This document shows, in pieces, positions 7,438 to 44,694 of a stretch of 64,000 nt of DNA. The position numbers and the translations under genes are program-made. The notes under the pieces are model-generated. The model did not search any database and was not told the DNA's origin. It worked only from the letters and a program-made list of their open reading frames with translations. Each line of letters begins with the position of its first letter. Position 1 is the stretch's first letter. Where the stretch lies: sequence record NC_054932.1. One strand, written 5' to 3'. Source of the DNA: Escherichia phage teqdroes.

Positions 7438-7444
7438 ATTCAAG

Positions 7445-7469
7445 GACTCCTTCGGGAGTCCTTTTTTCA
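7445..7469 (+). terminator. rho-independent terminator
   Basis: GGACTCC-TTCG-GGAGTCC hairpin followed by a T-run. Confidence 0.8.
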
Positions 7470-7477
7470 TTTAAATG

Positions 7478-7507
7478 GTTTACTTTCCAAAATGAGTATG
7501 GTATAAT
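7478..7507 (+). promoter_or_regulatory. early promoter
   Basis: GTTTAC at 7478-7483, TATAAT at 7502-7507. Confidence 0.55.
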
Positions 7508-15798: not shown

Positions 15799-15827
15799 TT
15801 TACAAACTCTTGGGACCAGAGTATAAT
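15798..15827 (+). promoter_or_regulatory. early promoter with -10 inside an inverted repeat
   Basis: GTTTAC at 15798-15803, TATAAT at 15822-15827, flanked by GGGACCA/TGGTCCC. Confidence 0.55.
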
Positions 15828-15871
15828 GGTCCCGTGGAGTATAAAATCTTTTTAACAAGTGAGAGATAACT

Positions 15872-16363
15872 ATGATTATTAATATTGGTGAATTAGCTCG
15901 TGTATCTGATAAATCCCGCTCTAAAGCGGCAGGAAAATTGGTCGAAGTTGTAAGCATTCAGCTTAAACACGGTGTTAAAGATGAAGATTCTGAAGTAAAA
16001 GTGCGTATCATTCCTAAAGATGGAAAGTCTAAACCTCAGTTTGGCTATGTTCGTGCGAAATTTCTTGAATCTGCGTTTTTGAAAGCTGTTCCTGCTAAAG
16101 GAATTGAAACGATTGATACTTCGCATGTAGGTGTAGACTTTAAGTGGAAACTCGGTCAGGCTATTAAGTTCGTTGCTCCTTATGAGTTTGAATTTACTGA
16201 AGGTGAGGAAGGTGTTGTTAACCGTACTCGCGCTATGTGTGCATACATTACTGATCAATGGGTAGAAGATGGCGTTAAGTTATACAACGCGGTATTTTTA
16301 GGAACATACAAAGTCATTCCTGAAAGTTGGATTAAACACTATAGCAAAGCTCGCTATGCATAA
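15872..16363 (+). CDS. hypothetical protein (163 aa), paralog of the 15361 ORF
   Basis: C-terminal TDQWVEDGVKLYNAV motif. Confidence 0.5.
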   Translation: MIINIGELARVSDKSRSKAAGKLVEVVSIQLKHGVKDEDSEVKVRIIPKDGKSKPQFGYVRAKFLESAFLKAVPAKGIETIDTSHVGVDFKWKLGQAIKFVAPYEFEFTEGEEGVVNRTRAMCAYITDQWVEDGVKLYNAVFLGTYKVIPESWIKHYSKARYA

Positions 16364-16460
16364 AGTTTAAAATTTTTTCATAAAACTATATACATCAGTA
16401 GTTGATTATGGTACTATATCAATATCAACTACTGATACAGAAAACAACTTGGAGAATAAA

Positions 16461-16730
16461 ATGGAAAATTTAATTATCATCGAGCAATCTTTCAATGATT
16501 ATGGTATGGCTTACGGTTATCGTGCGATAATGGAAGATTCTCGTGGATGTGTTATCGATATTGCTGAATGTAAAGATTTACTGCAGCTTTTGAAGATTGT
16601 TCGCAAAAATTGGGATTGTGAAAACATTAAAGCTCGTGTTGTAACGGAAGAAGAAACTGTTTTTCATGATGTAAAATTTGCCAAAGGTGCTGCTACTCTT
16701 CTGAAACGCATCGCTCCACTGTTCAATTAA
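16461..16730 (+). CDS. hypothetical protein (89 aa)
   Basis: ATG with GGAGA SD; the ORF-track start at 16449 is a short extension. Confidence 0.45.
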   Translation: MENLIIIEQSFNDYGMAYGYRAIMEDSRGCVIDIAECKDLLQLLKIVRKNWDCENIKARVVTEEETVFHDVKFAKGAATLLKRIAPLFN

Positions 16731-16743
16731 TGAGGAAATTGTA

Positions 16744-16959
16744 ATGAAACGTAAAATTGTTCAGAACTGCACTAATGACGAATTTGAAGATGTATTATTC
16801 GATCCAAATTTGGTAGTAGTTCAAAAGGAACACACCATCAAGTTTACTCACTTGACTTCGGTTTATGTGTATGAAAAGGTTGGTGATAAACAACCGATTT
16901 ACGGTGTATTCCGTGAAATCACTGAAGACGGTACAACTTACTGGAAGGAAATTTATTAA
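16744..16959 (+). CDS. hypothetical protein (71 aa; cef position)
   Basis: ORF with GAGGAAA SD. Confidence 0.4.
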
Positions 16960-17384
16960 TGGCTATTAGATTTGAAGTTAATAAATGGTATCAATTTAAA
17001 AATAAACAAGCTCAAGAAGCTTTTATTAAAGACCATACTGAAAACGGAATTTATGCACGACGTTTAGGTATGGAACCTTTTAAAGTTATAGATATTGACT
17101 ATCTTGGTCGTCCAACTAAAATTATGTCATCTACTGGAAGATTGGCATTATCCTCCGGTAAAGATATTTTGGATGAAGATTTTATTTGGCTTTCTACTAG
17201 CGAAGCTGAATTCTTTGATGAAGTTGAAAATCCATACCAGGCAGCTGAAGAGCAAGAGCAGGAAGAGAAAGAGCAAGAACAAATAGAAGATTTCACAGAA
17301 TTCCCGGTCATGAAAGTTACTATTGAAAATAATGAACATGCATGGTCCTTGTATCAGATGTTGAAAGCACATTTTAAGGAATAA
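16959..17384 (+). CDS. goF: GoF/ComC-alpha-like protein
   Basis: 141 aa with an acidic [12 protein letters not shown] stretch; size and position as T4 goF. Confidence 0.45.
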
Positions 17385-18272: not shown

Positions 18273-20090
18273 ATGATTAAGAATGAAATTAAAATTCTGA
18301 GCGATATTGAACATATCAAAAAGCGTAGCGGCATGTATATTGGCTCTTCTGCTAATGAAATGCATGAGCGCTTTCTGTTTGGTAAATGGGAAAGTGTTCA
18401 GTATGTACCTGGTCTTGTTAAGCTTATTGATGAAATTATCGATAACTCAGTAGATGAAGGTATTCGTACTAAGTTTAAATTCGCAAATAAAATTAATGTT
18501 ACTATCAAAAACAATCAAGTAACAGTTGAAGATAACGGTCGTGGTATTCCACAAGCGATGGTTAAAACACCTACCGGTGAAGAAATTCCTGGTCCAGTTG
18601 CTGCTTGGACTATTCCAAAAGCGGGTGGTAACTTTGGTGATGATAAAGAACGTGTCACCGGTGGTATGAATGGTGTTGGTTCTAGTTTAACTAACATTTT
18701 TTCTGTGATGTTTGTCGGTGAAACTGGCGATGGTCAAAATAATATTGTAGTTCGTTGTTCAAATGGCATGGAAAATAAATCCTGGGAAACTATTCCTGGA
18801 AAATGGAAAGGAACTCGTGTTACTTTCATTCCAGATTTTATGTCATTTGAAACTAATGAGCTGTCCCAAGTTTATCTTGACATTACACTGGATCGTCTCC
18901 AGACACTTGCAGTAGTTTATCCTGATATTCAATTTACCTTTAATGGTAAAAAGGTTCAGGGTAATTTTAAGAAATATGCACGACAGTATGATGAACATGC
19001 TATTGTTCAAGAACAAGAAAATTGTTCTATTGCGGTTGGTCGTTCACCGGATGGATTTCGCCAATTAACTTATGTGAATAACATTCACACTAAGAATGGT
19101 GGCCATCACATTGACTGTGTTATGGATGATATTTGTGAAGACCTTATTCCACAAATCAAACGTAAGTTCAAAATTGATGTAACTAAAGCACGTGTCAAAG
19201 AATGTTTGACTATCGTTATGTTTGTCCGTGATATGAAAAACATGCGATTTGATTCTCAAACTAAAGAGCGTTTGACTTCTCCATTTGGTGAAATCCGTAG
19301 TCATATTCAACTTGACGCTAAAAAGATTTCACGCGCTATTCTAAATAATGAAGCAATTCTGATGCCAATTATTGAAGCTGCACTAGCTCGTAAATTGGCA
19401 GCAGAAAAAGCAGCTGAAACTAAAGCAGCTAAAAAGGCTTCTAAAGCTAAAGTTCATAAACATATCAAAGCGAATCTTTGCGGTAAAGATGCTGATACTA
19501 CTCTTTTCTTGACTGAGGGTGATTCTGCTATCGGATATCTTATTGATGTTCGTGATAAAGAACTTCATGGTGGTTATCCATTGCGTGGTAAAGTTCTCAA
19601 CAGTTGGGGTATGTCATATGCTGATATGCTTAAAAACAAAGAACTATTTGATATTTGCGCAATCACTGGATTAGTTCTTGGTGAAAAAGCTGAAAACTTG
19701 AATTATCATAATATTGCTATTATGACTGATGCTGACCATGATGGTCTAGGAAGCATTTATCCTTCTCTTCTTGGATTTTTTAGTAATTGGCCAGAACTGT
19801 TTGAGCAAGGACGAATTCGCTTTGTCAAAACTCCTGTAATCATCGCTCAGGTCGGTAAAAAACAAGAATGGTTTTATACAGTCGCTGAATATGAGAGTGC
19901 CAAAGATGCTCTACCTAAACATAGCATCCGTTATATTAAAGGACTTGGCTCTTTGGAAAAATCTGAATATCGTGAGATGATTCAAAATCCAGTATATGAT
20001 GTTGTTAAACTTCCTGAGAACTGGAAAGAGCTTTTTGAAATGCTCATGGGAGATAATGCTGACCTTCGCAAAGAATGGATGAGCCAGTAG
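18273..20090 (+). CDS. 39: DNA topoisomerase II large subunit gp39 (GyrB-like), uninterrupted
   Basis: 605 aa with GHKL ATPase and TOPRIM motifs; longer than the T4 gp39 I recall (~516 aa), consistent with a fused 39+60 reading frame. Confidence 0.9.
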   Translation: MIKNEIKILSDIEHIKKRSGMYIGSSANEMHERFLFGKWESVQYVPGLVKLIDEIIDNSVDEGIRTKFKFANKINVTIKNNQVTVEDNGRGIPQAMVKTPTGEEIPGPVAAWTIPKAGGNFGDDKERVTGGMNGVGSSLTNIFSVMFVGETGDGQNNIVVRCSNGMENKSWETIPGKWKGTRVTFIPDFMSFETNELSQVYLDITLDRLQTLAVVYPDIQFTFNGKKVQGNFKKYARQYDEHAIVQEQENCSIAVGRSPDGFRQLTYVNNIHTKNGGHHIDCVMDDICEDLIPQIKRKFKIDVTKARVKECLTIVMFVRDMKNMRFDSQTKERLTSPFGEIRSHIQLDAKKISRAILNNEAILMPIIEAALARKLAAEKAAETKAAKKASKAKVHKHIKANLCGKDADTTLFLTEGDSAIGYLIDVRDKELHGGYPLRGKVLNSWGMSYADMLKNKELFDICAITGLVLGEKAENLNYHNIAIMTDADHDGLGSIYPSLLGFFSNWPELFEQGRIRFVKTPVIIAQVGKKQEWFYTVAEYESAKDALPKHSIRYIKGLGSLEKSEYREMIQNPVYDVVKLPENWKELFEMLMGDNADLRKEWMSQ

Positions 20091-23514: not shown

Positions 23515-23709
23515 ATGTTAGGTTATCAAGCACGAGTAAAAGAAGAATACGATCAATTAATGCTCAAAATTAATGCACTGAGTAAATTTTTAGAAAGCGC
23601 AAAGTTTCTAACAGTTAGTGCAGTTGAGCAAGAACTGCTACTTTCACAGTTCATCTCAATGAAATCTTATGCTGAATGTCTAGAGAAAAGAATTGCACAA
23701 TTCAAGTAA
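23515..23709 (+). CDS. hypothetical protein (64 aa)
   Basis: ORF with AAGGAAA SD. Confidence 0.45.
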   Translation: MLGYQARVKEEYDQLMLKINALSKFLESAKFLTVSAVEQELLLSQFISMKSYAECLEKRIAQFK

Positions 23710-23713
23710 AACA

Positions 23714-23737
23714 AAAGGGCTTCGGCCCTTTTGTTTT
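23714..23737 (+). terminator. rho-independent terminator
   Basis: AAAAGGGC-TTCG-GCCCTTTTGTTTT. Confidence 0.7.
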
Positions 23738-23748
23738 AAGGAAAAATT

Positions 23749-24586: not shown

Positions 24587-24616
24587 GTTTACATACCACA
24601 AGGACCGTGGTACTAT
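24587..24616 (+). promoter_or_regulatory. early promoter (repeated module)
   Basis: GTTTAC at 24587-24592, TACTAT -10, followed by the conserved leader CAACTATCAGCTACGGAGGAG. Confidence 0.5.
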
Positions 24617-24643
24617 ACAACTATCAGCTACGGAGGAGTAAAA

Positions 24644-24907: not shown

Positions 24908-24990
24908 GTTCATTATGGTGGTGTTTTGTTTGGTTAATTAGTATTCCATTAATTTGTTTAACATTTACTTTTGTGATGAGGTTATTATGA
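24904..24990 (+). CDS. hydrophobic micro-ORF (28 aa)
   Basis: MSSLWWCFVWLISIPLICLTFTFVMRLL; ATGA overlap with the upstream stop. Confidence 0.35.
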   Translation: MSSLWWCFVWLISIPLICLTFTFVMRLL

Positions 24991-25085
24991 AAATTTTGAA
25001 TTCTGTACTTATTGCTTGTGCGTGGTGGGTTGCACAGGTTTCAGCGGTAGTAGTTGGTATTCACATTTATTACGAATATTTTTAA
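24987..25085 (+). CDS. hydrophobic micro-ORF (32 aa)
   Basis: MKILNSVLIACAWWVAQVSAVVVGIHIYYEYF. Confidence 0.35.
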   Translation: MKILNSVLIACAWWVAQVSAVVVGIHIYYEYF

Positions 25086-25092
25086 AAAAGTT

Positions 25093-25123
25093 GTTTACAA
25101 GACTGTTCTTCCGTGGTACTATT
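25093..25123 (+). promoter_or_regulatory. early promoter
   Basis: GTTTAC at 25093-25098, TACTAT -10, leader …CAACTACGGAGGAAC. Confidence 0.5.
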
Positions 25124-25150
25124 ACCCTATCAACTACGGAGGAACAGAAA

Positions 25151-28179: not shown

Positions 28180-28207
28180 GGGAGAGCCGAGGCTCTCCCT
28201 TTTTTTA
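28180..28207 (+). terminator. rho-independent terminator
   Basis: GGGAGAGCC-GAG-GGCTCTCCC followed by T8. Confidence 0.8.
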
Positions 28208-28231
28208 TTTCAAAAATTTTTTCACAAAACG

Positions 28232-28262
28232 GTTTACAACCAAAGCATACTGTGGTACTATA
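28232..28262 (+). promoter_or_regulatory. early promoter (repeated module)
   Basis: GTTTAC at 28232-28237, TACTAT -10, conserved leader CAACTATCAACTACTGATACAG. Confidence 0.55.
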
Positions 28263-28302
28263 CAACTATCAACTACTGATACAGAATTACGGAGATTAGA
28301 AA

Positions 28303-42890: not shown

Positions 42891-43540
42891 TTAAACTCCG
42901 CATGCCTGCTGGTGGTGAAAGATACATTGATGGTAAATCAGTTTATAAATTATACTTAATGATAAAACAACATATGAATGGAAAGTATGATGTAATTAAG
43001 TATAATTGGTGCATGCGGGTGTCTGATGCCGCTTATCAAAAGCGAAGGGATAAGTATTTTTTCCAGAAGTTATCAGAAAAATATAAATTAAAGGAACTTG
43101 CTTTAATCTTTATAAGTAATTTGGTTGCTAACCAAGATGCTTGGATTGGTGACATCTCTGACGCTGATGCACTTGTGTTTTATCGTGAATATATCGGACG
43201 CTTAAAGCAAATTAAATTTAAGTTTGAAGAAGATATTCGCAACATTTATTATTTTAGTAAAAAAGTTGAAGTTTCTGCTTTTAAAGAAATTTTTGAATAT
43301 AATCCAAAAGTTCAATCAAGTTATATTTTTAAACTGCTTCAGTCGAACATAATTTCGTTTGAGACGTTTATCTTGCTTGATTCATTTTTAAATATAATTG
43401 ATAAACATGATGAACAGACTGATAATTTAGTCTGGAATAATTATTCTATAAAGTTAAAGGCTTATAGAAAAATTTTAAATATTGATTCACAGAAAGCTAA
43501 AAGTGTTTTCATTGAAACTGTGAAATCTTGTAAGTATTAA
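42887..43540 (+). CDS. 59: gp59 helicase loader
   Basis: 217 aa; matches T4 gp59. Confidence 0.9.
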   Translation: MIKLRMPAGGERYIDGKSVYKLYLMIKQHMNGKYDVIKYNWCMRVSDAAYQKRRDKYFFQKLSEKYKLKELALIFISNLVANQDAWIGDISDADALVFYREYIGRLKQIKFKFEEDIRNIYYFSKKVEVSAFKEIFEYNPKVQSSYIFKLLQSNIISFETFILLDSFLNIIDKHDEQTDNLVWNNYSIKLKAYRKILNIDSQKAKSVFIETVKSCKY

Positions 43541-44570: not shown

Positions 44571-44596
44571 GGGGACCCTAGAGGTCCCCTTTTTTA
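44571..44596 (+). terminator. rho-independent terminator
   Basis: GGGGACCC-TAGA-GGTCCCC followed by T6. Confidence 0.8.
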
Positions 44597-44621
44597 TTTC
44601 AAAAATTTTTTTCACAAAACA

Positions 44622-44651
44622 GTTTACATCCTTGTCCTTCCATGGTACTAT
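44622..44651 (+). promoter_or_regulatory. early promoter (repeated module)
   Basis: GTTTAC at 44622-44627, TACTAT -10. Confidence 0.55.
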
Positions 44652-44694
44652 ACAACTATCGGCAATACTGCTGATGATTAAAGAGGAAAATAAT

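Follow-up and report, generated by a model that had tools for sequence, protein, structure and literature searches.

The 13-bp inverted repeat at 16394-16436, just 3' of motB in Escherichia phage teqdroes, is probably the stem of a composite promoter/stem-loop cassette of the PeSL (promoter-early stem-loop) kind. The strong evidence is the fixed position of the repeat within an early promoter, together with its invariance in Tequatrovirus and its structural conservation in other genera. The 13-bp repeat taken alone is only moderately improbable. The feature is a further, well-supported but ordinary member of a described class, and it opens no new kind of system. Positions are those of the window, the whole 64-kb (64,000-nt) stretch of DNA that was analysed.

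The repeat and its place in an early promoter

The window is, by its sequence, the early region of a Tequatrovirus. The tested stretch of it is 100% identical to Escherichia phage vB_EcoM_R5505, and hundreds of Tequatrovirus genomes match it at 94-99% identity. On the + strand the gene order is dexA, two ORFs, motB, an 89-aa ORF, cef, goF and gene 39. Gene 39 (topoisomerase II large subunit) is one 605-aa ORF here (18273-20090), and is split in two by an insertion in the T4 annotation. The motB stop codon is at 16361-16363, the start codon of the 89-aa ORF is the ATG at 16461, and the repeat sits in the 97-nt gap 3' of motB. The features of the site are as follows.

15872-16363, + strand: motB, 163 aa, the cistron upstream of the repeat (from the ORF list; motB is annotated in matching records)
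16370-16388, + strand: A/T-rich, UP-like block aaattttttcataaaacta, aligned without gaps to the blocks of the promoter at 28233 and the T4 msp1 promoter
16389-16394, + strand: -35-like TATACA, 17 bp before TACTAT and in register with GTTTACA of the paralogues
16394-16406, + strand: left arm ATCAGTAGTTGAT, in the promoter spacer at -30 to -18, where the paralogous promoters are unrelated
16394-16436, + strand: hairpin of the read-through RNA, from RNA folding (13 bp, a 2x2 internal loop, 5 bp and a CUA loop)
16409-16417, + strand: extended -10 TGgTACTAT; 16409-16413 pairs with 16417-16421 as the inner 5-bp stem
16413-16421, - strand: putative mirror-image extended -10 TGaTATAGT, read from the sequence, with a predicted start at 16406
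16424-16436, + strand: right arm ATCAACTACTGAT, predicted +1 to +13 of the local transcript and a conserved early-leader start
16437-16460, + strand: remainder of the leader, read from the sequence, with the Shine-Dalgarno GGAG at 16451-16454
16461-16730, + strand: 89-aa ORF served by the promoter (ORF list), of family phrog_3720, which assigns it no function
16744-16959, + strand: cef, following the 89-aa ORF (ORF list)

The perfect 13-bp inverted repeat reported in the initial annotation is exact in coordinates and sequence: ATCAGTAGTTGAT (16394-16406) and ATCAACTACTGAT (16424-16436) are perfect reverse complements, and the 17 nt between them are TATGGTACTATATCAAT. A repeat finder extends the dyad inward to arms of 20 nt, with 85% complementarity and 3 nt between them. 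Three inverted repeats in the 64-kb window are perfect over 13 bp or more with a spacer of 40 or less; dinucleotide shuffling predicts 0.12 per window, and at least one turns up in 7.5% of the shuffled windows. Another of the three spans 42948-43007 (AAATTATACTTAA, 34 nt, TTAAGTATAATTT). At 23707-23738, AAAACAAAAGGGCTTCGGCCCTTTTGTTTT forms a perfect 14-bp palindrome around a UUCG loop, has an A-run and a T-run at its flanks, and resembles a bidirectional intrinsic terminator.

A search for the TGGTA[CT]TAT core showed that 16370-16460 is one copy of a repeated T4 early-promoter cassette. No gaps are needed to align it with the early promoters at 24588, 25094, 28233 and 44623 or with the promoter annotated for T4 msp1. 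The order of the cassette is an A/T-rich block (aaaattttttca), a -35, a 17-bp spacer, the extended -10 TGgTACTAT, six bases, and a leader that begins ATCAACTAC. The -10-like element TGGTACTAT of the initial annotation is the extended -10, common to the T4-type early promoters at 24608, 25114, 28253 and 44643. The initial annotation thus saw the -10 and the recurrence of the right arm, but did not recognise 16370-16460 as one repeated promoter cassette. The TATACA of this copy differs from the T4 early TTTACA by one change, and the GTATACA variant of the -35 is also found in the cef-upstream sequences L016-L019. The usual -10 spacing and the paralogous promoters place the predicted transcription start at 16424, where the right arm begins.

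The two arms differ in how often they occur in the window. The right arm with its downstream bases has an exact copy at 28268-28286, and diverged copies occur at 24623-24635 and 25129-25141, which bears out the recurrences noted earlier in other leaders. All three copies lie at an equal distance after a TGGTACTAT box. The right arm recurs because it occupies the same position in paralogous promoters, that of the conserved leader start. The left arm has no second occurrence anywhere in the 64-kb window. The T4 msp1 promoter has its whole leader, up to ATGGA, in common with the promoter at 16389, and its spacer is unrelated; the complementarity therefore belongs to the spacer of the 16389 copy. 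The upstream half of the msp1 promoter (L046 = T4 L13089), comprising the -35, spacer and -10, matches the promoter at 44623, which has a different leader. This comparison, made with 16424-16466 and 44623-44660 of the window, suggests cassette recombination with a breakpoint just after +1.

A generic sigma-70 scan made no call at 16389, where the -35 is weak, because TATACA and TACTAT together score only 8 of 12 matches. The T4 GenBank records AF158101, NC_000866 and M89919 carry no promoter feature at the site, and the 'predicted early promoter' of Yersinia phage fPS-2 is the one upstream of motB, not the one at 16389. A literature search found no experimental 5'-end mapping for 16424 and no genome-wide data on primary 5' ends of T4. 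A T4 middle or late promoter was rejected, as neither a MotA box (TGCTT) at -30 nor TATAAATA at -10 is present in 16380-16430. The available part of the list of mapped T4 middle promoters gives none between T4 5349 and 10058.

The surrounding locus is variable. The 89-aa ORF (16461-16730) is intact in the window and in AR1. T4 has the same intergenic sequence between motB and cef as is found here, yet its 89-aa ORF is mostly deleted; about 213 bp were lost between two AAAATT repeats, leaving ATGGAAAATTCGCTAAAGG. RB7 and KRT47 carry an extra motB-like gene of 139 aa between motB and the promoter. The Shine-Dalgarno of the 89-aa ORF is GGAG (16451-16454), the motif cleaved by the T4 RegB endoribonuclease in some early messages. 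RegB attacks early mRNAs at the Shine-Dalgarno sequence (PMC2988021).

Hairpins across the -10 element

The initial annotation had suggested folding the RNA that reads through the repeat. A 117-nt read-through RNA forms a stable hairpin at -23.6 kcal/mol (z -3.94, 0/200 shuffles), and the 60-nt segment from -36 to +24 folds at -20.2 kcal/mol (z -6.06, 0/200 shuffles). The hairpin begins 31 nt after the motB stop codon. An RNA that begins at 16424 has the 3' arm alone and lacks structure (-1.3 kcal/mol, z +0.9). The antisense RNA of the 16394-16436 element folds well too, at -18.0 kcal/mol. The 13-bp arms are purely Watson-Crick, and therefore the copy at 16389 cannot by itself discriminate between RNA and DNA. 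A scan of the Rfam families gave no match at E <= 1 in 16200-16600.

Two conventional roles for such a hairpin were considered and rejected. An intrinsic terminator does not fit, with ACAGAAAAC in place of a U-tract after the stem and an A/U-rich stem (4 G-C pairs of 13), and a terminator scan found no + strand site in 15800-17000. A canonical termination mechanism is unlikely because the U-tract is missing. Masking of the ribosome-binding site does not fit either. The stem ends 15 nt before GGAG, and the read-through fold leaves the ribosome-binding region accessible, with an unpaired probability of 0.60 versus 0.37 in the local transcript.

All Tequatrovirus orthologues examined keep the palindrome unchanged (T4, five contigs from IMG/VR, and four GenBank records taken from the most divergent of about 500 matches), while the upstream T-run and the bases just downstream vary. 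A pattern scan of IMG/VR found these five contigs and no others. The sole arm variant found was in Salmonella phage Lv5cm, where A16435>G turns an A-U pair into a U.G wobble.

From 25 IMG/VR contigs that belong to other T4-like lineages we also took the region upstream of cef. These include Cronobacter phage Pet-CM3-4 (L023), Escherichia phage EcS1 (L031), vB_EcoM_VR25 (L032) and a contig that Klebsiella phages match at 98% (L025). Every other lineage has an inverted repeat around the -10 of its cef-upstream promoter, and the arm sequences differ. The initial annotation had proposed a comparison of orthologous intergenic regions among T-even phages, in which lack of conservation would count against the element; what we found is a palindrome kept in Tequatrovirus and pairing kept elsewhere. 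The cef-upstream arms of the other lineages are listed here (left arm / right arm).

GGTAGGGTA / TACCCTATC
GGTCTAT / ATAGACC
AGGGCTAT / ATAGCCCT
GGTGTAGG / CCTACACC
GGTAGGAGC / GCTCCTACC
GTGTAGGAAC / GTTCCTACAC
GATAGGG / CCCTATC, in VR25, where the -10 is almost gone

A MAFFT alignment anchored by the -35 and -10 was used to score a 10-pair helix, which was derived from these same, related sequences and for which the Tequatrovirus stem was entered as unpaired. On that basis 82.9% of cells are paired, versus 34-47% when the partner is displaced by 1-3 columns. Both sides have changed in six of the ten pairs, and the covariation score was reached by none of 500 column shuffles. A single structure common to all genera was tried and fails, as the register of the Tequatrovirus stem is shifted by 5 alignment columns, with its centre near -9 versus -11.5 in the other genera. 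The Tequatrovirus stem is therefore an analogue of the stems in other genera and not their column-by-column homologue.

Hairpins of this type are also common among the other early promoters of the window. We folded the segment from -36 to +24 of 18 bona fide early promoters and calculated z against dinucleotide shuffles. Half of them (9/18) have a hairpin across the -10, with z from -3.6 to -6.7, and the other nine are shuffle-like. The hairpin promoters have their -35 elements at 2939, 14791, 15799, 16389, 25094, 45616, 54002, 57327 and 61223, and their arms are unrelated in sequence from one promoter to another. The promoter at 15799 is that of motB itself, so that the cistron upstream of the repeat is also served by a promoter with a hairpin spanning its -10.

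The strand preference of these hairpins is informative. The sense RNA is more stable than the antisense RNA in all nine hairpin promoters of the window. When related loci are added, the sense RNA is the more stable in 33 of 36 (mean difference -4.3 kcal/mol), and the enclosing stems have 74 G.U pairs in the sense versus 32 in the antisense; this set and the cef-upstream set include related sequences, which makes the counts partly dependent. A G-T apposition can pair in RNA alone, and on one strand only. Hence the bias speaks for selection on the sense transcript, not on a DNA cruciform or protein site. Between the two possibilities offered by the initial annotation, an operator and an RNA hairpin in read-through transcripts, the hairpin is favoured by the folding (z -3.9 to -6.1), the co-varying arms elsewhere and the sense-strand G.U bias.

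Finally, the presence of a hairpin is linked to the distance of the upstream gene. Hairpins occur in 9 of the 12 early promoters with an upstream stop codon at most 26 nt from the -35, a count that holds if the 32-aa ORF at 24987-25085 is real, and in none of the six with a longer gap or a divergent upstream gene. The link has a one-sided Fisher p of about 0.005 by hand calculation, or 0.025 if the promoter at 25094 is classed as long-gap. The hairpin-less promoters at 7479, 28233 and 44623 come directly after canonical intrinsic terminators. Those terminators (7440-7478, 28183-28215 and 44596-44622) have G/C stems, short loops (one of them UUCG) and T-runs.

Other explanations of the repeat

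There are several other ways to explain a perfect repeat at this position. First, the repeat may have no function of its own, being a quasi-palindrome perfected by templated (strand-switch) mutation and then kept by conservation of the promoter. Templated correction of quasi-palindromes is a classic mutational route in T4. The right arm is constrained anyway as the leader of the cassette, and a perfect 13-bp repeat turns up in 7.5% of shuffled windows. We nevertheless consider this origin unlikely as a full account. The spacers of the paralogues vary freely, yet the spacer at 16389 shows no change among the Tequatrovirus orthologues examined, although the bases next to it do vary. Other genera, and half of the window's early promoters, have independent stems of other sequence at this place.

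Second, the site may be a symmetric bidirectional promoter, with divergent starts at 16424 (+) and 16406 (-), the arms being +1 to +13 of each transcript and the minus-strand RNA being antisense to the 3' end of motB. The -10 is the centre of the dyad: TACTATA reads as TATAGTA on the other strand, and the extended elements are TGgTACTAT on the plus strand and TGaTATAGT on the minus strand. The geometry, which is that of sequence only, is that of TACTAT at 16412-16417 (+) opposite TATAGT at 16418-16413 (-). The predicted starts are exactly 18 bp apart, hexamer positions 2 and 6 pair, and position -18 is T. Warman et al. found divergent starts 18 bp apart to be the commonest bidirectional arrangement in E. 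coli (10.1101/2020.01.31.928960). The site thus resembles bidirectional sigma-70 promoters in its overlapping opposite-strand -10 elements, its 18-bp separation of predicted starts and its T at -18. It differs in that both starts are predictions, the minus strand has neither a -35 nor an A/T block, and the symmetry is not shared by related promoters. The minus-strand TGn could make up for the absent -35. However, the minus strand has TCTGTA where a -35 would lie, no A/T block upstream, and no ORF or ribosome-binding site after the predicted start. In the other hairpin promoters and in the cef-upstream promoters of other genera, the dyad centres lie at about -7.5 and -11.5, without a minus-strand TGn. 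What is conserved is therefore not the symmetry about the -10, and a functional bidirectional promoter seems quite unlikely.

A wider proposal would combine this minus-strand promoter with the hairpin class. About half of the Tequatrovirus early promoters would be nested in hairpins that form only in read-through RNA, as a genome-wide device, and a divergent antisense promoter at 16406 would be directed into the 3' end of motB. If true, the read-through and local messages of the same gene would be made structurally different throughout the genome. We regard the combined proposal as improbable.

Third, the element may act as DNA. The 43-bp near-palindrome could extrude as a cruciform or hairpin and serve as a recombination or breakpoint site in the shuffling of cassettes, along the lines of the mini-circle idea for PeSLs, or as an off-switch for the promoter. 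Its 20-nt arms are 85% complementary around a 3-nt centre, and the DNA hairpin is calculated at -11.5 kcal/mol (z -5.1). The locus is hyperplastic, with an ORF deleted in T4, an extra gene in RB7 and KRT47 and a leader in common with T4 msp1, and recombination at PeSLs is already published. Several observations make a DNA-level role doubtful, however. The stems of the class contain G-T appositions and the sense RNA folds better in 33/36, a bias that DNA structure would not give. The T4 deletion ends inside the ORF, at the AAAATT repeats and not at the palindrome, and the RB7 insertion lies upstream of the whole cassette.

The weakest explanation is the operator for a dimeric DNA-binding protein that the initial annotation had proposed: a perfect dyad centred on the -10 is classic operator geometry, but the left half-site is unique in the 64-kb window, orthologous and paralogous promoters conserve pairing and not sequence, several stems of the class contain G-T appositions, the exact right-arm copy at 28268 and the diverged copies have no matching left arm, and we know of no sequence-specific early repressor, all of which makes an operator very unlikely. 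One candidate protein, MotB, is reported to bind DNA without sequence specificity (PMC6070864), which also counts against it.

Comparison with known systems and a possible role

The closest described relatives of the element are the PeSLs. Arbiol et al. (2010) defined them in phages RB49 and phi1 as cassettes that combine an A/T-rich block and a sigma-70-like promoter with a stem-loop, and that end in a Shine-Dalgarno sequence and start codon (PMC2839356). There are five subclasses by position of the stem, including stems between the -35 and -10 and stems overlapping the -10, and one PeSL stem-loop lowered reporter expression in the same way as rrnB T1 (PMC2839356). Comeau et al. (2014) later described PeSLs in the T4/PST pair, with the promoter consensus TTTACW-N17-TAYWAT (PMC4122927). 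In the figure legend for PST/T4 the stem-loops lie immediately before the promoter instead of around the -10 (PMC4122927).

At the level of sequence, the site at 16389 has every feature by which a PeSL is recognised. The promoter is TATACA-N17-TACTAT with a TGn and the A/T block aaaattttttca, and deviates from the consensus only at position 2 of the -35. The stem, at -30 to -18 and +1 to +13, encloses the -10. The motB stop codon lies 5' of the cassette, and GGAG (16451-16454) and ATG (16461) lie 3' of it. The cassette is a repeated one in a variable locus, as seen from the ORF deletion in T4 and the extra gene in RB7 and KRT47. The element is thus like the published PeSLs in its A/T block, its 17-bp spacer, a stem between the -35 and -10 or over the -10, its intergenic position near indels and its shared leaders. 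It differs in the nature of the stem. The RB49/phi1 stems have G/C tracts and one of them terminates, whereas the stem at 16389 is A/T-rich and has an interrupted loop of 17 nt, and this copy is a putative terminator and promoter.

We propose the following model for the cassette. Between motB and the next ORF there is a T4 early promoter of the sigma-70 type, whose variable spacer would have become complementary to the first 13 nt of its own transcript. Polymerase starting at 16424 would make an RNA with only the 3' arm, which would be unstructured. Polymerase arriving from the motB promoter and beyond would transcribe both arms, and the RNA would form an interrupted hairpin of 18 bp. That hairpin may mark the end of the upstream cistron, either by attenuating or pausing read-through or by protecting the 3' end of the motB message after cleavage, while the nested promoter would re-initiate for the downstream genes. 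A role at the cistron boundary, as proposed for the PeSL stem-loops, is the most likely function by analogy.

The model offers a reason for the location of the hairpin inside the promoter. With motB abutting the promoter, the spacer and the first transcribed bases would be the only DNA left free, an explanation suggested by the link between hairpins and abutting genes. If our reading is right, the site is a cistron boundary folded into a promoter, and not a missing T4 repressor site. The packing of T4 genes would be tight enough that a promoter spacer is the only DNA free to carry an RNA signal. The regularities of the class (half of the early promoters, the bias toward the sense RNA and the abutting genes) make the PeSL idea directly testable in T4. 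Such tests could also clarify how early polycistronic messages are segmented.

Two other types of T4 element invite comparison. The intrinsic terminators of T4 (such as those at 23707-23738 and 28183-28209) are similar in that a stem-loop follows a cistron and precedes an early promoter. They differ in having G/C-rich stems, UUCG-type loops and T-runs, all of which are absent at 16394-16436. The T4 e, soc, 49 and I-TevI genes have a late promoter inside a hairpin, with a 3' arm that sequesters the Shine-Dalgarno or AUG (PMC3014915). The resemblance to these genes lies in a promoter placed within a stem-loop, such that RNA initiated upstream folds and local RNA, here from a predicted start, is without the 5' arm. 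The difference is that the promoter at 16389 is of the early type and its Shine-Dalgarno is 15 nt past the stem and unoccluded, so that the defining feature of the e/soc/49/I-TevI arrangement fails. At three other hairpin promoters of the window (25094, 54002 and 57327), the prediction is that read-through RNA leaves the ribosome-binding region far less accessible than local RNA does. The predicted occlusion at these three resembles control of the T4 lysozyme type, but at early promoters.
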